Source of the DNA: an uncultured Treponema sp. | GTDB taxonomy: Bacteria > Spirochaetota > Spirochaetia > Treponematales > Treponemataceae | Assembly (NCBI GenBank): GCA_964607295.1 | Contig: CAZSJX010000007.1 | Span: 18,026-82,025 of the forward strand | Length of the DNA: 64,000 bases | Reading direction: 5' to 3' | In this document: one piece after another, positions 49,859 through 64,000 of the stretch | Layout of the letters: every line of letters starts with the position of its first letter | How positions within the stretch are numbered: the stretch's first letter is position 1 | Program-made: the position numbers and the translations under genes | The notes under the pieces: model-generated | Database searches by the model: none | What the model was told of the DNA's origin: nothing | What the model saw: only the letters and a program-made list of their open reading frames with translations

Positions 49859-49898
49859 TAAAAAATATTACTTGTTTTTAGAAAAATAAAGGGAAAAA

Positions 49899-50120
49899 AT
49901 GACTAACAAAAACGTAGAAGAATTAACAAGACTTATGAGACAGCTTGTGTCTGATGTTCAGGGCGCTCCTTTTCCTAGTGAAAAAATCGAGCCGGAGCTT
50001 TACTCAATTTGGTATGAGCATGTTCAGCGCGGAGCACAGAACTGCTTTGAATTTTTGGAGCAGCACTTTCCGCTGGACAATTCCGAGTTCAAAGATTCCC
50101 TGAAGAAAATATTTAAATAA
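49899..50120 (+). CDS. Small hypothetical protein (73 aa)
   Basis: Clean ORF with RBS aaggg, coding-like composition, fills the gap between genes. Confidence 0.6.
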   Translation: MTNKNVEELTRLMRQLVSDVQGAPFPSEKIEPELYSIWYEHVQRGAQNCFEFLEQHFPLDNSEFKDSLKKIFK

Positions 50121-50239
50121 ACATAGTTTCCTGCCGAAAATAAAGCAGAGGCAATCTTTGTAAAATATTTATTTAAGATTGCTGAATAAGTGCCGTGCTT
50201 TTTTGTGCTGGCTGTGTCTTGTTTTTGGTGGGAAGATAT

Positions 50240-51421
50240 ATGGCTGCAAGAAAAATTTGCCGTAATGAAAAACTACAATTAAAAGGTTTCCTTAGGAAAA
50301 ATGGCTTTGACCGCTGGAGACTTGTTACAAATGCTGTAAGTTCTGTTTCTGGCGAAGAAAAAGCTTTCTTCTTTGAATTTTACGCTGTGAATCCTGCCTT
50401 GTCGCCTAAAGAATGTGTCCTTGGATTCAAGAACCGCTTTAATAAATCAGCAGAAGATTTCCAGTATGTTCTGGCAGGCTCCCAGACTGCAAAAAATTTT
50501 GCTTCGCAGACTTATGTTCAGCCTTCTTTTTTTATGATAAAGGCAGGAATTCTTTCTTTGAGCGCAAGCCATGTCAATTCTTATTTTCCGCCTGAAATTT
50601 TGTCAGCAAAAAAAAGCGACTTTATAGTTTCCGCAAAGCAGGAGGACTTGCCGGCCTGCATTTTGGCTCATGACTACATTTCAGGCGCAATAAAAGTTAC
50701 AGACGAGGATTTGCGCGTTCACCCTGAGTACATGGGAAATTCCGGCTCAATATCATGGAGCTTGAAGTTTTCAAGGAGCATTTCGTTTTCTTCAGACTAC
50801 AGGACAAAGGACATAAGCTGGGCGGTGCTTGGAGGCAAGACCGATTTTTCCGGCAAAATTATTTTCAACAATGAAGAGTATAATGTCAGCCCAAGAAATT
50901 CTTTTGGATACTATGATAAAAACTGGGGCAGGGATTTTTCTTCCCCGTATTTTCACTTAAGCTCTTCGAATTTTACAAGCGAAATTTCCGGGCGGCTTTT
51001 GGAAAACTCTGTGTTTGCAGTTCAGGGCGAGTATAAAAATAAAGTTTCTGTTCTTGTTTCAATTGAAGGAAAGAATATCGAGTTTCATGCTGACAGGCTG
51101 AAAAGAAAGCAGGTGAGCTATGACTGCCAGGAAATGAACGGAACAGAAGATGAGGGCCTGAAGCTGCATTGGTCCGTAAGCGTCCATGACCGGCGGTATG
51201 TAATTGACATTGATATTTTTTGCAATACAAAGGAAATGTCCCTGCGCGATTTTGAAAGTCCGGCCGGCGGAAGAAAAATAATGAGGATTCTTGCAAGCGG
51301 TTCTGGAACTGGAAAATTCAAGCTGTACAAAAAGATGCGGAAGAATCTTGAGCTTTTGGAGCAGGCTGACATATCAAAGTGTCTTTGCGAATACGGAAAT
51401 CTTGAGACCGCTGAAAAATAA
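50240..51421 (+). CDS. Tocopherol-cyclase-like fold hypothetical protein
   Basis: FFFEFYAVNP and GYYDKNWGRDF motifs resemble the tocopherol cyclase family; start uncertain (50195 or 50240). Confidence 0.5.
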   Translation: MAARKICRNEKLQLKGFLRKNGFDRWRLVTNAVSSVSGEEKAFFFEFYAVNPALSPKECVLGFKNRFNKSAEDFQYVLAGSQTAKNFASQTYVQPSFFMIKAGILSLSASHVNSYFPPEILSAKKSDFIVSAKQEDLPACILAHDYISGAIKVTDEDLRVHPEYMGNSGSISWSLKFSRSISFSSDYRTKDISWAVLGGKTDFSGKIIFNNEEYNVSPRNSFGYYDKNWGRDFSSPYFHLSSSNFTSEISGRLLENSVFAVQGEYKNKVSVLVSIEGKNIEFHADRLKRKQVSYDCQEMNGTEDEGLKLHWSVSVHDRRYVIDIDIFCNTKEMSLRDFESPAGGRKIMRILASGSGTGKFKLYKKMRKNLELLEQADISKCLCEYGNLETAEK

Positions 51422-51482
51422 ACGCAAAAAAAAATTTGTTTTTTAGTTCGGAAATTTGTATCTTTCTTCTTAGAGGTAATTT

Positions 51483-54086
51483 ATGAATTACGAACAGATG
51501 ACATTAAAAATGCAAGATGCGCTTCAAGGCGCAAGCAGCTTGGCCCAGCAAAGAGACCACAGCGAAATCGGCAATGAACATCTTTTGTATGCCATGCTTA
51601 ATCAAAAAGACGGAATGGTTCCTCCTCTGTTAGAGCGGATTGGAATTCAGCCGAATTCTTTGCAGACAAATCTTGAAAATTTATTGGACAAATATCCTGT
51701 AGTGAAAGGGCAGACTCAGATGTCCTTGTCTTCCAGCGCGCAGAAAGTTCTTGCCAAGGCTGAAAAGGAAATGTCTTCCTTGAAAGATCAGTTTCTTTCT
51801 ACAGAGCACGTTTTCCTTGCAATGACACAGTCTGATGACAGCGTCGGCGAGCTTTTAAGGAATTCAGGCTGCAGCAGGAATAATGTTCTGGAAGCGTTGA
51901 AGTCAGTTCGTGGAAACCAGACTGTTGATTCCCAGGACCCTGAAAGCAAGATGCAGAGCCTTGAAAAATACTGCACGGATTTGACCGCCCGCGCGCGCCA
52001 GGACAAAATTGATCCTGTAATCGGACGCGACGAGGAAATCCGCCGTGTAATGCAGGTTCTGTGCCGCCGCACAAAGAATAATCCGGTTCTGATTGGTGAG
52101 CCTGGCGTTGGTAAAACTGCGATTGTTGAAGGTCTTGCACGCCGAATCGCCAGCGGAGATGTTCCGGAAAGTCTGAAAAACAAGCGGCTTCTTTCTCTTG
52201 ATATGGGAAGCCTGGTTGCGGGCGCAAAATTCCGCGGTGAATTTGAGGAGCGTCTGAAAGCTGTAATTACGGAAGTTACAAAATCTGAAGGGCAGATAAT
52301 TCTGTTCATCGATGAGCTTCACACGATTGTAGGGGCTGGAGCAAGCGAAGGCTCGATGGATGCGTCGAACTTGCTGAAGCCGGCTTTGAGCCGCGGCGAA
52401 ATTCACGTGATTGGCGCGACAACTTTGAACGAGTACCGCAAGTACATTGAAAAGGATGCCGCCCTTGAACGAAGGTTCCAGCAGGTTTACTGCGCTGAGC
52501 CGACTGTTGAGGACACAATCGCTATTCTGCGAGGTCTCCGCGACAAATATGAAATTCATCACGGTGTAACAATTGAAGACGAAGCTCTTGTAAGCGCGGC
52601 GGTTCTTTCAAACCGCTATATTACGAACCGTTTTTTGCCGGACAAGGCTATTGACCTGGTTGATGAGGCAGCCAGCCGTCTTAAGATGGAAATTGAAAGC
52701 CAGCCTGTCGAGCTTGACCAAGTTGAACGAAAAATTCTTCAGCTTCAGATTGAAAAGCAGTCGCTCAGCAAGGAAGACGATCCTTCTTCAAAGGAAAGGC
52801 TTGAAAAACTTGAAAAAGAGCTTTCCGAAATGAACACAAAGCGTGACGCGATGAAGCTGCGCTGGCAGAACGAGAAAAACAACATCGACAAGAGCCGCAC
52901 GCTCAAGGAGCAGCTTGAAACGGCCCGCTTCAACGAGGAAAAATTCACACGTGAAGGAAACCTTGAAAAGGCGGCGGAACTGAAGTACAGCACAATTCCT
53001 TCGCTGCAGAAACAGCTTGAGGAGGCGACAAAGGCTGAAAAGGAAAAGGAAGACAATCCTGAGCGCGAATCCTTGCTCCGCCAGTCTGTTACGGAAGAAG
53101 ATATTGCGCGCGTTGTAAGCAGCTGGACAGGAATTCCTGTTGCAAAAATGATGACCAGCGAAAAGCAGAAATATCTTCAGCTGGAGGAAGTTCTTCATAA
53201 GCGCGTAATCGGTCAGGATGAAGCTGTGCAGGTTGTGAGCGACGCAATCAGGCGAAACCGCTCCGGCTTGAGCGACCCGAACCGTCCGCTTGGAAGTTTT
53301 ATGTTCATCGGTCCTACTGGAGTCGGAAAAACCGAGCTTGCAAAAACTCTTGCGGATTTCCTATTCAACGACGAGAAGGCTTTGACCCGAATCGATATGT
53401 CTGAATATATGGAAAAATTCAGCGTGAGCCGTCTTATCGGTGCGCCTCCGGGATACGTTGGATACGACGAAGGCGGCCAGCTTACAGAAGCGGTTCGCAG
53501 ACGCCCTTACAGTGTCGTGCTTTTTGATGAGGTTGAAAAGGCTCATCCGGATGTTTTCAACGTTCTTCTTCAGGTTCTTGATGACGGACGCTTGACTGAC
53601 GGACAGGGACGGGTAGTGGATTTCAAGAATACGATTATCATCATGACGAGCAACTTGGGAAGCGATCTGATTCTTGACGCGGCGGAAAATTCTTCGGAAA
53701 AAACTGAAAGCGTTTCTCCGGAAGTTCGCGAGAAAATCGACGGGCTTTTGAAATCACATTTCAGGCCGGAATTCCTGAACCGAATCGATGAGATTGTGAT
53801 GTTCCAGAAGCTTGGAAAAGACTGCATCAGCGGAATTGTAAAAATTCAGCTTGAGCGCGTTGCAAAGCGGCTTGAGGACAGAAGAATCAGCATTGATTTT
53901 GACCAGAAATCAGTTGATTTCCTTTGTGAGAAAGGCTACGACCCGGCGTTTGGCGCCCGCCCTGTAAAGCGCGCAATCCAGACTTGGGTTGAAAATCCTT
54001 TGAGCAAGGAGCTTCTTGAAGGAAAGTTTGCTGAAGGCTGCACAATAAATGTTTCGAGCAATGGACGTGAGCTTGAATTTAAGTAA
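51483..54086 (+). CDS. clpB: ATP-dependent chaperone ClpB
   Basis: Two AAA+ modules ([16 protein letters not shown]), M-domain coiled coil, [20 protein letters not shown]. Confidence 0.97.
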
Positions 54087-60412: not shown

Positions 60413-60580
60413 GCGTTGCGTCTTGTCTCCGCAAAGCTCCGCCTTTGCCGCCGGGCTATCCGGGGTTCCAGCATTCGCTTTCATTGCCTCCGCTCTCCGT
60501 TCGCTCCGCTCACTTCAAAGTTTGCAAAGCAAACTTCCGCTCCGGCAACGCGCCAGGCGTGCCCCTACTATCCCTAACGC
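60413..60580 (+). repeat. GC-rich REP-like element, copy 3
   Basis: gggcgtt...gggctatccggggttccagc...cgcaa/ggcaacgcgccaggcgtgcccctactatccctaacgc. Confidence 0.75.
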
Positions 60581-60655
60581 ATCCGCAAAAGCCGATGTGC
60601 AAGAAAGAGCCATCGCCGCTCCCAAAAAAGCCAGTTTAGACAAAATCTTTTTCAT
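60515..60655 (-). pseudogene. Duplicated 5' end of the flavodoxin gene fused to REP sequence (46 aa ORF)
   Basis: 60581-60664 matches 60122-60205 at 79 of 84 nt; reads MKKILSKLAFLGAAMALSCTSAFAD and then runs into REP copy 3. Confidence 0.75.
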
Positions 60656-60670: not shown

Positions 60671-61534
60671 CTACTCGTGGATTTTCCAGGTGTTTATCAT
60701 CTTTACAAACGCCGGATCAGAATGGTTCACAATTTCGCTGTGCCCAATGTCGAGCGCGGCAATTTTTTTCATATCGTCGCCGTCAAGCGAAAAATCCCAA
60801 ACCGCGATATTTTCTTCCATTCTGTTCTTATGCACCGACTTCGGAATCACCACAACACCACGCTGAATGTTCCACCGCAGAACAACCTGGCCAACCGTTT
60901 TTCCGTGCTTCGCCGCAATTTCCGCTAGAACAGGATTTGTAAAAATTCCGTGCTTACCTTCTGCAAACGGTCCCCAAGCCTCAGGCACAACGCCGTAATT
61001 TTTCATCGTTTCAAGAGACTTCTCCTGCTGAAAAAACGGATGCAGCTCAACCTGGTTCACCGCCGGCAAAACCTCAAAATTCTCGCACAAATCGCAGAGC
61101 CTGTCCGGATACATATTGCTCACGCCCACCGCGCGAATTTTTCCTTCCTTGTACAAATCCACCATCGCACGGTAAGAGCTGTAGTAATCGCCGAACGGCT
61201 GATGAAAAAGATACAAATCCAGATACTCAAGCCCAAGCGCCTTCACCGACTTTTCAAAAGCCTTTTTCGTATTCTCGTAGCCGTAATCCTGAACCCAAAG
61301 CTTTGTCGTAATGAACAGCTCCTCACGCTTCACAAGCCCCTCAGAAACCGCACGCGAAATAGCCCTGCCAACCGACTCCTCATTCTGATAAGCCGTCGCC
61401 GTGTCAATCAGACGATAGCCCGAACAAATCGCATCATAAACCGCCTGCTCCGCAACATTTCCATCCGGCACCTGAAAAACCCCAAAACCCAGCCGAGGCA
61501 TCTTCACACCGTTGTTCAGCGTAACAAAATCCAT
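60671..61534 (-). CDS. Aldo/keto reductase (2,5-diketo-D-gluconate reductase-like)
   Basis: MPRLGFGVFQ, IDTATAYQNE, ELFITTKLW, YLDLYLFHQP, VNQVELHP, IPKSV. Confidence 0.93.
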   Translation of the reverse strand: MDFVTLNNGVKMPRLGFGVFQVPDGNVAEQAVYDAICSGYRLIDTATAYQNEESVGRAISRAVSEGLVKREELFITTKLWVQDYGYENTKKAFEKSVKALGLEYLDLYLFHQPFGDYYSSYRAMVDLYKEGKIRAVGVSNMYPDRLCDLCENFEVLPAVNQVELHPFFQQEKSLETMKNYGVVPEAWGPFAEGKHGIFTNPVLAEIAAKHGKTVGQVVLRWNIQRGVVVIPKSVHKNRMEENIAVWDFSLDGDDMKKIAALDIGHSEIVNHSDPAFVKMINTWKIHE

Positions 61535-61555
61535 AAAATCCTCCAGAAAATTTCA

Positions 61556-61690
61556 AGGGCGTTCCCGCGCTTTCGCTCCGCTCAAACGCGGTCGCTATGT
61601 CCGGGGTTCCAGCCTTCGCTTCCATTGCGCCCGTTCCGCATCCGCTCCACAGCCGCAACGCGCCAGGCGCGCCCCTACCAGCGCTAACGC
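61556..61690 (+). repeat. GC-rich REP-like element, copy 4
   Basis: gggcgtt...gtccggggttccagccttcgctttccattgc...gcaacgcgccaggcgcgcccctaccagcgctaacgc, a direct repeat of copy 3. Confidence 0.75.
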
Positions 61691-61837
61691 ACCGTTACAA
61701 ATAAAATATCAGAGGAATAAAAATAAATAAAATAGAAGATTTTTTTAGTCAGTATAAGTTTTAGTTATAGTGAAAAACTATAGTTTATAATCCCAGCATT
61801 TTGATTCAAGCAATTTAATAATGAATTTTTAGCAAGG

Positions 61838-61918
61838 TTCTAAAATTCTGCATTTCGTACTTAAAAAAGCTTCTAAAATTCTGCATTTTTCCCTTGAAAA
61901 CTGTTCTAAAATTCTGCA
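61838..61918 (+). repeat. Three identical 15 bp direct repeats with 33 bp period
   Basis: ttctaaaattctgca at 61838, 61871 and 61904, separated by two different 18 nt spacers. Confidence 0.95.
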
Positions 61919-61928
61919 ATAATTGGAT

Positions 61929-63233
61929 ATGCTCAGACGAAAATTTTATTCATTTCTTGAAGATTGGAAGCGCTCAAAAAAAAACGAGTGCCTTTTGGTA
62001 AGAGGGGCGCGTCAGATAGGAAAGTCCTTTATAATCCGGCAGTTTGGACTGGACAATTACAAAAACTTTATCGAAATCAATTTTGAGGAAAGACCTGAAC
62101 TGAAAAAAATATTTGAAGGAAACCTTGATGTTACCGAACTTATTCGTAAATTTTCGCTTTTTGTAGAAAATGTTGAATTCAAGACAGGGGAAACATTGAT
62201 TTTCTTTGACGAAATTCAGTCTTGTCCGCAAGCAAGAACTTCACTTAAATTTTGGGCTGAGGACGGTCGATTTGATGTTATTGCAAGCGGCTCACTACTT
62301 GGAATCAACTACAAGGAAGTGTCGTCTTTTCCTGTCGGCTATGAGCGGCAGGTGGAAATGCACTCTCTTGATTTTGAGGAATTTTTGTGGGCACGCGGAA
62401 TTTCTGATGAAGTCATTTCGGATTTAAAAAGACATTTTGATGAAAATCTTCCTGTAGAAAAATCCGTAAACGACAAAATGGAAAGCCTTGTTCGCGAATT
62501 TATGGTAATTGGCGGAATGCCGGCTGTTGTAAATTCTTTTCTTGAAACAAACAATTACGGCGAAGTTCACAAAACTCAGATGATGATTCTGGATGCTTAT
62601 CTTAACGACATTGCAAAATACGCACCGGCAAAAGACAAACCAAAGGCAAGAAACTGCTATCTTTCGATACCGAGGCAACTTTCTAAGGAAAACACGAAAT
62701 TTGTGTACGGTCTGGTCGAAAACGGCGGAACTGCGCGGAAATATGCAAACTCGCTTGACTGGTTGAAGGATTCAAACATTGTGCGCTACTGCTACAATGT
62801 CGTTCCTCCGAGTTTTCCCCTGGTAGCTTATGTACGGCAGGAACAGTTCAGGATTTATGCTAACGACATCGGACTTTTGGTCGCAATGTACGGATTTGAA
62901 ATGAAAGCTGCAATTGTAAACGATACGCTTACAGGAACTGTAAAAGGCGGCATTTACGAAAACCTGATTGCTGACTTTCTGCTCAAAAAAAACATTCCCC
63001 TGTTTTATTTTAAACGCGATGATTCTAGTTCTGAAATTGAATTTCTTCTTGAAAAGGAAACTTCTGTTGTTCCAGTTGAAGTAAAAAGTCACAAAGGCTC
63101 TACTTCTTCACTGGATTCTATGCTCAAAAAAAACGACGTGAAATTCGGCTATAAAATAATGAACTGTAACTTGGGAAAAAACGGAAAAAAAATAACGATA
63201 CCGCATTATATGGCAATGTTTCTGGGGGAATAA
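61929..63233 (+). CDS. ATP-binding protein, AAA_14 plus DUF4143 (C-terminal PD-(D/E)XK-like motif)
   Basis: VRGARQIGKS, FFDEIQSCP, IASGSLLG, GGMP, GGIYENLIA, EIEFLL...PVEVKS. Confidence 0.88.
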   Translation: MLRRKFYSFLEDWKRSKKNECLLVRGARQIGKSFIIRQFGLDNYKNFIEINFEERPELKKIFEGNLDVTELIRKFSLFVENVEFKTGETLIFFDEIQSCPQARTSLKFWAEDGRFDVIASGSLLGINYKEVSSFPVGYERQVEMHSLDFEEFLWARGISDEVISDLKRHFDENLPVEKSVNDKMESLVREFMVIGGMPAVVNSFLETNNYGEVHKTQMMILDAYLNDIAKYAPAKDKPKARNCYLSIPRQLSKENTKFVYGLVENGGTARKYANSLDWLKDSNIVRYCYNVVPPSFPLVAYVRQEQFRIYANDIGLLVAMYGFEMKAAIVNDTLTGTVKGGIYENLIADFLLKKNIPLFYFKRDDSSSEIEFLLEKETSVVPVEVKSHKGSTSSLDSMLKKNDVKFGYKIMNCNLGKNGKKITIPHYMAMFLGE

Positions 63234-63396
63234 AACTGAACTGCCCCCAAAATTCCAGGCAGTTTAAGCAGTTATCCCGCTTGGAGTTTTCCAACCAAGA
63301 TTTTGCTGGATACGTTCATTATTGTAATAACATATAAAATCGTCAATAAATCTTTTTCTTTTTTACAAATGCTTCAACCATGTCAACAACTTTTTA

Positions 63397-63747
63397 TTAA
63401 TTTGTTACTTCCTTTTTGATTTTATCAAGCATTCTGTTTACGCCAAGCCGTACTTCTTCAACAATTTCTGCTGCCATTTGGGCGCGGATTTTTTCGTTTT
63501 CGGGAGTTTCTTCTATTATAATGGGTGTTTCGTCTTGCGGAATGAAAAGTTGATAAACTTCTACTTCAAGGGCTTCGGCGATTTTTACGAGATTTTCTGA
63601 ACGCGGAAATCTTCTCATTCCTTCAACATTGTTGATATTTTGCACGGAAACACCGATTTTTTCGGCGAGTGTTTCTTGTGTGAATTTTCCTTTTCTATAA
63701 TATTTTATATTTTTAGATAATGTTTCTAAAAGTTCTTTTTCTGTCAT
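63397..63747 (-). CDS. XRE family helix-turn-helix regulator
   Basis: LSKNIKYYRKGKFTQETLAEKIGVSVQNINNVEGMRRFP...IAEALEVEVYQLF. Confidence 0.88.
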   Translation of the reverse strand: MTEKELLETLSKNIKYYRKGKFTQETLAEKIGVSVQNINNVEGMRRFPRSENLVKIAEALEVEVYQLFIPQDETPIIIEETPENEKIRAQMAAEIVEEVRLGVNRMLDKIKKEVTN

Positions 63748-63750
63748 TAC

Positions 63751-63860
63751 ACTTACATTTTGTAGGTAAAATTACTAAAATAACACTTCCAAAATGAATA
63801 AATAAAATATATACTTACAAATTGTAGGTTTTTATAATCAGTCCGCATTTTGTAAGTATA
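63751..63860. promoter_or_regulatory. Three related palindromic operators between the XRE gene and the divergent RM-like gene
   Basis: acttaca-ttt-tgtaggt (63751-63767), acttaca-aat-tgtaggt (63813-63829), gtccgca-ttt-tgtaagt (63841-63857). Confidence 0.65.
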
Positions 63861-64000
63861 TGGAACAATCAGTACAGGAACATCCGGCAAAAACACAAAC
63901 ATTTCCGTTCTCAGAAAAAATCCTTTCTGTTCTGCTTTTGGACAGAACGACTGGAAAAAATATCCTTTGGGCAACAGATGATTATGCACCGATTAATGCA
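63860..64000 (+). CDS. Start of a restriction-modification-associated methyltransferase-like gene, 3' truncated by the window edge (absent from the ORF track)
   Basis: MEQSVQEHPAKTQTFPFSEKILSVLLLDRTTGKNILWATDDY: the LLxDxTTGKNIxWATD motif is typical of proteins annotated as restriction endonuclease subunit M. Confidence 0.65.
   Translation, partial: MEQSVQEHPAKTQTFPFSEKILSVLLLDRTTGKNILWATDDYAPINA

Follow-up and report, generated by a model that had tools for sequence, protein, structure and literature searches.

Phased direct repeats on the promoter of an AAA_14-DUF4143 ATPase-nuclease gene are putative operators for its own product

Results

A three-copy repeat array precedes a PDC-S01 gene

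We analysed a 64,000-nt stretch of DNA from an uncultured Treponema sp. (GenBank assembly GCA_964607295.1, contig CAZSJX010000007.1, positions 18,026 to 82,025 of the forward strand; hereafter the window), in which a short repeat array directly precedes a gene for an AAA_14-DUF4143 protein. The gene occupies 61929–63233 on the plus strand and encodes 434 aa plus a stop codon. The 15-mer TTCTAAAATTCTGCA was found in exactly three copies on the same strand, at 61838–61852 (core repeat 1, the putative distal operator copy, in a repeat unit spanning 61834–61866), 61871–61885 (core repeat 2), and 61904–61918 (core repeat 3). The start-to-start distances were 33 and 33 bp, and the third copy ended 10 nt upstream of the ATG at 61929. 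Direct reading, a repeat finder, a pattern search, and Tandem Repeats Finder (TRF) detected the array consistently; TRF reported a 33-bp tandem array at 61834–61918 with 2.6 copies and 82% matches. An earlier reading of the sequence alone (the original prediction) had described three 15-bp boxes with this period and this distance to the ATG, and the pattern search and TRF confirmed the description. It had also taken the 18-nt spacers to be unrelated, which was incorrect, as units 1 and 2 were 82% identical over 33 nt and copies 1 and 2 had 18 contiguous nt in common, TTCTAAAATTCTGCATTT.

In the whole 2.5-Mb genome, the sole matches to TTCTAAAATTCTGCA with at most one mismatch were the three exact copies of the array. 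When three mismatches were allowed, seven sites were found in the 64-kb window against 5.98 expected, which is the level of chance.

Two other types of element were considered and rejected. A mini-array of clustered regularly interspaced short palindromic repeats (CRISPR), which had also been discounted in the original prediction, did not fit a 15-nt repeat (the class needs at least 23 nt) present in three copies with interrelated 18-nt spacers and sitting on a promoter. An RNA element was rejected on the absence of an Rfam match and of a stable fold (z = +0.9).

Arrays of the same period precede paralogues with other cores

The genome carries eight full-length DUF4143 genes plus fragments. 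Direct repeats with a period of 32–33 bp were found immediately upstream of five of the eight full-length paralogues, each with a different core: TTCTAAAATTCTGCA in three copies at the C7 paralogue (this locus), AAATTnACGATTTTG in five copies at the C16 paralogue, GTCCnCCTTAAAAATGTA in two copies at the C1 paralogue, GGAAAAATGTGAT in three copies at the C15 paralogue, and TTATTATAATTTTT in two copies plus a degenerate third at the C23 paralogue. Across the genome, each core was found essentially only at its own promoter. An unbiased whole-genome TRF run returned only three arrays of period 32–33, all directly upstream of DUF4143 genes, and five of the six exact repeats of at least 13 nt at an offset of 32–33 in the genome likewise preceded DUF4143 genes.

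The three distant paralogues (C30:998-2245, C13:40110-41345, and C15:42703-43989), which have a GxRRxGKS Walker A motif and 17–19% identity, were without clean 32–33-bp arrays. One of them is preceded by a 13-nt repeat at an offset of 41 bp and another by a 9-nt repeat at 21 bp, whereas the third has no upstream repeat.

Phased arrays are widespread among homologues

The homologue set comprised 29 loci from related genomes and 80 loci from public genomes at 34–57% identity, the latter collected with a four-sequence alignment as the query, and covered at least eight phyla; the public loci came from Clostridia, Lachnospiraceae, Negativicutes, Bacilli, Bacteroidales, Treponema, other Spirochaetia, Kiritimatiellae, Akkermansia, Saccharibacteria, and metagenome-assembled genomes of a dehalococcoidian (Dehalococcoidia) and a gammaproteobacterium. 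Of the 108 loci with enough upstream sequence, 81 had their longest exact upstream repeat (at least 10 nt) at one of two offsets, 32 in 36 loci and 33 in 45, and only three had it at another offset. In the control set, 8 of the 2046 open reading frames (ORFs) of this genome (0.4%) had such a repeat at offsets 31–34, and several of these were the DUF4143 paralogues themselves. A mismatch-tolerant detector found at least two phased copies in 91 of 109 loci and up to five to six copies in the longest arrays (loci L018 and L062 and the C16 paralogue of this genome). The proposal that homologues would carry phased repeats upstream, put forward with the original prediction as a check, was thus borne out, as was the proposal that the repeats would vary with the protein, since the core type followed the protein clade.

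Plasmid-borne members had comparable arrangements: two copies 32 bp apart on pRUMAL01 of the culturable Ruminococcus albus 7 (gene RUMAL_RS17400), where they abut a −35-like TTGACT, three copies at 33 bp on a Glaesserella parasuis plasmid, and two palindromic copies at 31 bp on an Acinetobacter baumannii plasmid. In the last case, a distant proteobacterial member (L130; NZ_CP038501.1, upstream of E4664_RS19925; 29% identity), the two copies are not asymmetric cores but boxes of some 24 bp with imperfect palindromic symmetry, CACTTTTATGCGCATAAAAATGTA.

Individual loci illustrated how arrays may change. At L017 (G017:C15), an intact gene is preceded by a lone core, ATCTAAAAATCTGCA, directly after a terminator-like hairpin, so an array can collapse to a single site. 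At L103, about 200 nt upstream of the gene, two arrays of different specificity follow one another: first TTTCTAAAAATGTGA in two copies, with the core of the L089/L090 clade, and then AGTCGGAATTTTGTGT in three copies adjoining the gene. This double array may be the remnant of an array replacement or of a specificity switch.

Cores are conserved and lineage-specific

When the copies within one array were placed in a common register, they showed 0.83–0.97 identity over about 12 positions and 0.36–0.5 in the spacer. Between loci whose proteins were 65–80% identical, the cores were 0.72 identical and the spacers 0.36, which is approximately random for this composition; at 80–97% protein identity, the values were 0.85 and 0.51, respectively. 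The cores are thus under purifying selection. Most cores had a common shape, namely a variable 5' part, an A/T run, and then TGTGA, TGCA, TTGCA, or TGG(C/A)A. On the protein tree, the core type was clade-specific, requiring 25 changes as compared with 47 in shuffles, and the period switched between 32 and 33 sixteen times and hardly ever outside that range. The copies of an array changed in concert while the spacers drifted.

By eye, the helix segment 268–273 of the protein appeared to vary with the 3' half of the core: TGTGA cores accompany ARNREY, and TGCA cores T/S-A-R-K-Y. This association is suggestive only. R270K was seen twice, by eye, where TGCA was lost.

The last core lies within the predicted promoter

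The best sigma-70-like site in the promoter scan (10 of 12 matches) consisted of TTGAAA at 61894–61899, in the spacer between repeats 2 and 3, and, after an 18-nt spacer, AATAAT at 61918–61923. The latter is preceded by TG and forms a predicted extended −10 element, TGcAATAAT, at 61915–61923 on the plus strand. The spacer from −35 to −10 is filled by the last core (repeat 3), which also reaches into the TG of the extended −10; this would be the classical position of a repressor. The ATG starts 6 nt after the −10 hexamer, with 5 nt in between, so the mRNA of the ATPase is probably leaderless or near-leaderless. The repeats had been described as a leader of the gene in the original prediction; this did not hold, because the predicted −10 lies downstream of the last repeat and the array, which is within the promoter, forms no transcribed leader.

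In nine further loci (the C23 and C1 paralogues of this genome and L016, L021, L030, L031, L040, L075, and L091), the best −10 hexamer starts 11–12 nt before the ATG, and TTGAAA or TTGACA is present in the last spacer of many homologues. Consensus promoter calls across the loci were noisy, and some calls that placed a core downstream of −10 were pseudo-promoters inside arrays. Among the usable calls, the last core lay between −35 and −10 in 18 loci (this locus and 17 others) and abutted −35 in 13. In Firmicutes, the array and the promoter are followed by a Shine-Dalgarno leader. Bacteroidales loci have the last core directly against the ATG, in several cases with a TAnnTTTG box just before this core. 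The position of the array thus tracks the promoter and not the start codon, which argues for a transcriptional role at the DNA level.

The protein is a predicted ATPase-nuclease with an Orc1-like architecture

The product of the gene matched Pfam AAA_14 with its N-terminal P-loop region (9.9e-25; 87.5 bits, cut-off 27) and DUF4143 at residues 226–387 (3.1e-26; 92.5 bits, cut-off 28.1). A PADLOC search, which had been suggested together with the original prediction, identified it as a full-length member of the defence candidate system PDC-S01 (AAA_14 + DUF4143, COG1373; model PDLC04786), with an E-value of 6.6e-149 and residues 1–432 aligned to positions 1–432 of the 439 in the profile. The ATG at 61929 was taken as the start in preference to an upstream TTG, because the N-terminus then fits the family consensus MLKRK.

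A search by sequence for a solved structure found none. The AlphaFold2 model, built from a 76-sequence alignment, had a mean predicted local distance difference test score (pLDDT) of 93.3 and a predicted template modelling score (pTM) of 0.91. Four domains were discerned in the model: an AAA+ core (residues 1–155; 61929–62393), a lid (160–231; 62406–62621), a winged helix (234–311; 62628–62861) with a putative recognition helix at 269–281, and an alpha/beta domain of the PD-(D/E)xK nuclease type (314–434; 62868–63230). The combination of AAA+ core, lid, and winged helix appears well suited to DNA binding. The top Foldseek match was the Pyrococcus abyssi Walker ATPase 2qen, followed by the complexes of Orc1/Cdc6 with origin DNA 2v1u and 2qby, and by ORC4, Apaf-1, and MuB. 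The matches to 2v1u, 2qby, 1fnn, 1w5s, and ORC4 had a probability of 1.0 but template modelling scores (TM-scores) of 0.24–0.34, which indicates that the domains match those of Orc1/Cdc6 and that their relative orientation differs.

Among 112 sequences, K32 (Walker A), D94-E95 (Walker B), D313, and E344 were invariant, and E369, E384, and K386 were retained in 108–109. Position 371 was D in 85 of the sequences and E in 27, including this protein. The nuclease core was complete in the model, with E344, E369, E371, and E384-V-K386 carried on helix 337–352 and strands 358–362, 372–376, and 379–385; that is, the acidic residues and the lysine sit on the alpha-beta-beta-beta-alpha-beta fold expected of PD-(D/E)xK enzymes. 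The N-terminal P-loop, the C-terminal D-x(n)-EVK motif, and the winged-helix region noticed in the original prediction were therefore all recovered, the last at residues 234–311. Because the Walker and nuclease residues are invariant or nearly so, the protein appears to be an active ATPase-nuclease and more than a mere regulator.

The array and the gene are inherited as one unit

Similarity to the 70% orthologue was limited to the segment from the first repeat through the stop codon (C7:79864-81249), and the 69% and 89% orthologues sit in unrelated flanks. We searched 78 loci for a conserved flanking gene; no family occurred in more than eight of them, and the one that reached this number was a second paralogue. 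The array and the gene are thus the only conserved unit, placed here in a variable interval with defence genes.

Two sister genomes provided further observations on placement. In G007 (C2:333000-345000; L128), a 57%-identical ATPase gene with the core GTCAAATTCGTGGCA in five copies directly follows a block syntenic with 49893–54059 of the window, about 7.8 kb from the position of the ATPase gene in this window. In G011 (C147; L127), the contig ends in the 5' part of the gene for the 89% orthologue, leaving its array unassembled, and the downstream flank is unrelated to the window.

Discussion

Cooperative self-binding as the probable explanation

Judged by the comparisons above, the array is specific to this gene family and tied to the core promoter, and each lineage or paralogue has its own core. 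All copies of one array change together as the spacers diverge, and no gene other than that of the ATPase is co-inherited with them; from this we infer, as the simplest explanation, that the gene's own product reads the cores. The winged helix would be the reader and repression the effect. That relatives from many phyla keep the layout, each with its own box sequence, makes it most likely that the protein binds and controls its own gene. We therefore favour, as the probable explanation, that the ATPase binds cooperatively to phased operators and represses its own, probably leaderless promoter. The original prediction of an autoregulated NTPase-nuclease with a winged helix that binds its own repeats gains support from the family-wide phased arrays and the clade-specific cores.

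The three 15-bp boxes would then be operators for the product of the downstream gene, to which protomers would bind head-to-tail through the winged helix. One Orc1 protomer covers roughly 30 bp, and a spacing of 32–33 bp, about three helical turns, would be close to the footprint of one protomer of this type; with this spacing fixed, neighbouring protomers could bind cooperatively. The promoter-proximal protomer, located between −35 and −10, would block RNA polymerase. The outcome would be negative autoregulation that keeps the ATPase-nuclease, a potentially toxic protein, scarce and buffers its amount.

Several points weigh against self-repression. About one-quarter of the homologues were without a clean array under the criteria used, and the 69% orthologue L017 retains a single core. 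The loci in which the last core abuts −35 could also reflect activation, and the invariance of the Walker and nuclease residues would also fit an array that serves a catalytic activity instead of regulation. Mutual information between protein and core (average-product correction, 61 arrays) was diffuse and dominated by phylogeny; the pair of K271 and core base 14 ranked second, and many columns outside DNA binding ranked alike. Only seven phylogenetically independent pairs were usable, with p ≥ 0.5 for the comparisons of TGCA with R270-K271, GTG with R270-E/D271, and G15 with R270.

Alternative explanations

In the main alternative, which we consider unlikely, the array would serve also or mainly as a working site, a docking or nucleation strip for an ATP-dependent oligomer of the ATPase-nuclease, any effect on transcription being a by-product. 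On such a strip the oligomer might be stored, licensed, or activated, for example to be released or switched on in infection. The Orc1/Cdc6-like fold would suit an assembly of the kind formed by Orc1/Cdc6 on origin recognition box (ORB) elements and by DnaA on DnaA boxes; the near-complete invariance of the catalytic residues across the 112 sequences argues that the enzymatic activity is under selection; arrays of five to six copies exceed the needs of simple repression; and the spacing is kept at 32–33 bp. However, the array without exception accompanies the core promoter, whose distance to the ATG varies among phyla; two copies, or one as in L017, suffice in many intact loci; and the core has no copy elsewhere in the genome. 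A working site and autoregulation are compatible and do not exclude each other.

A bolder and doubtful proposal would join both functions. The PDC-S01 proteins would be Orc1-like ATPase-nucleases that form a very large, sequence-programmable family, each lineage reading a private core of about 12–16 bp mainly with winged-helix residues ~268–273. The 32–33-bp array at the own promoter would be the assembly site that holds an ATP-dependent head-to-tail oligomer inactive until infection or DNA stress releases or activates it. If this were true, the thousands of natural protein-core pairs would amount to DNA-binding modules that are orthogonal to one another and whose recognition code can be read.

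That the array and the gene form a one-gene mobile cassette, with the repeats as a cis site for copying or integration by the encoded nuclease, seems to us improbable. The first repeat and the stop codon are indeed the exact limits of the conserved unit, and close orthologues lie in unrelated contexts. The family occurs patchily, in 40 of 81 related genomes, and in multiple copies, up to eight, and the best matches, of up to 57% identity, occur in distant phyla. A cassette of this kind should nevertheless have paired ends, and as the core has no further copy downstream of the gene or elsewhere in the genome, no such pair exists; target duplications and terminal inverted repeats were not seen either. 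Homologues were rare on plasmids (59 of 72,556 records, most of those listed being large replicons) and phages (13 of 50,697 records), and the placement on the promoter is better explained by regulation. Carriage of this array by phages was also considered and rejected, as no phased pair of the core was present in viral contigs.

Even less probable is that another host factor binds the repeats, or that they constitute a structural feature of the promoter or an RNA element without connection to the encoded protein. In favour of this, the cores are rich in A/T and include strings that resemble a −10. Against it, a single genome has five private cores, the gene has no conserved neighbour, the predicted −10 lies downstream of the array, and neither an Rfam match nor RNA structure was found. 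Finally, a chance or recent neutral tandem duplication without function, to which the 82% identity of units 1 and 2 might point, retains next to no probability and is already contradicted by the comparative data: the same architecture recurs in 81–91 of about 108 homologues against 0.4% of controls, with cores conserved and spacers randomised.

Relation to known systems

Self-repression through such an array would have partial parallels. Archaeal Orc1/Cdc6 proteins share the AAA+ core, lid, and C-terminal winged helix seen in our model, and have repeated sequence-specific boxes beside their gene. In contrast to the direct repeats on a promoter found here, ORBs are inverted boxes that flank an unwinding element; the present protein also has an extra C-terminal nuclease, and nothing points to a role in replication. 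Whereas an origin initiator would be expected in few copies, in an origin context, and with a helicase partner, the present gene occurs in up to eight copies per genome, is absent from half of the sister genomes, lies in unrelated flanks, and has no conserved neighbour.

Plasmid Rep initiators (P1 RepA, F RepE, pPS10 RepA, and R6K pi) repress their own gene via iterons, with a site sequence that is lineage-specific. They are built of two winged-helix domains (WH1-WH2), and their iterons are typically about 17–22 bp with a spacing of about 22 bp. In form the present array resembles iterons, consisting of phased tandem direct repeats beside the gene of a binding protein, here a putative one; however, that protein is an AAA+ ATPase-nuclease and not of the Rep WH1-WH2 type, and its gene is chromosomal and rare on plasmids. 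DnaA, an AAA+ ATPase of the initiator clade, acts on arrayed boxes in its own promoter in a manner that depends on its nucleotide state. It differs in having another DNA-binding domain and one universal box, as opposed to a private core in each lineage and a nuclease domain.

Significance for PDC-S01

According to passages of two reports, PDC-S01 ranks fourth by frequency among the defence (candidate) systems of prokaryotes and first among single loci in rumen genomes, with about 39,000 PDC-S01 loci counted in one survey (PMC12988326, PMC13356809). The corresponding passage of another report lists DUF4143 as a PD-(D/E)xK domain whose function is unknown (PMC3424549). A role of PDC-S01 in phage defence is unproven, because the only published assay found, according to the passages retrieved, does not list it among the four protecting systems; in that assay a construct of the coding sequence (CDS) only was challenged in E. 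coli B with T4, T5, and T7 (10.1101/2024.09.26.614923). An upstream repeat array was not described in the passages on DUF4143 or PDC-S01 found by our literature search, and within that scope the repeat element appears to be unpublished.

PDC-S01 is reported to be one of the most abundant candidate defence genes in prokaryotes and is, as far as these passages go, one with no known ligand, target, or mechanism. A conserved, lineage-private element would offer the first concrete and cheap experimental handle, since it provides DNA of defined sequence on which binding, ATPase, and nuclease activity could be assayed. Our results also suggest that CDS-only constructs, as in the published phage assay, omit the native control region. 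If the self-binding proposed here is true, the family would be a source of numerous orthogonal pairs of protein and operator, and a bacterial counterpart to the recognition of ORBs by Orc1.

Flanking genes and other features of the window

An XRE-type helix-turn-helix (HTH) gene lies at 63397–63747 on the minus strand, convergent with the ATPase gene (HTH_3, 1.7e-09; PADLOC matches to HTH_VI, RmrA, and 'Control_protein'). It is followed on the plus strand by the start of a 311-aa ORF at 63860–64000, which has no Pfam match, runs off the window, and is considered as context outside the module. Beyond the window, this ORF precedes a 1342-aa fusion of ResIII and an Eco57I methylase, in line with the original prediction of an XRE regulator and a restriction-modification-like gene next to the ATPase. 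The XRE gene is no conserved neighbour of the ATPase family and most likely belongs with the downstream restriction-modification-like genes, not with the ATPase module.

Upstream of the array lies an aldo/keto reductase gene whose orthologues in sister genomes are found at other places. The interval from this gene to a LysR gene (60671–64000 of the window and beyond; G000:C7:78696-87759) was variable: here it holds the ATPase gene, the XRE gene, the 311-aa ORF, and the ResIII and Eco57I fusion, whose place in sister genome G023 is taken by genes for a GmrSD type IV restriction enzyme, a DUF3990 protein, and a GNAT protein. The interval thus looks like a small defence hot spot. With a restriction-modification-like gene next door and GmrSD in the same interval of the sister genome, the gene content around the ATPase is suggestive of defence.

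A GC-rich element of about 150 bp is located at 61540–61690, directly upstream of the aldo/keto reductase gene, with a partial copy about 1 kb away at 60459–60581. This second copy, together with short matches to many sister-genome contigs, makes it look like a dispersed repeat of the genus, similar to repetitive extragenic palindromic (REP) sequences or miniature inverted-repeat transposable elements (MITEs). Elsewhere in the window, at 1716–2224, TRF detected a 181-bp tandem repeat with 2.8 copies and 88% matches.

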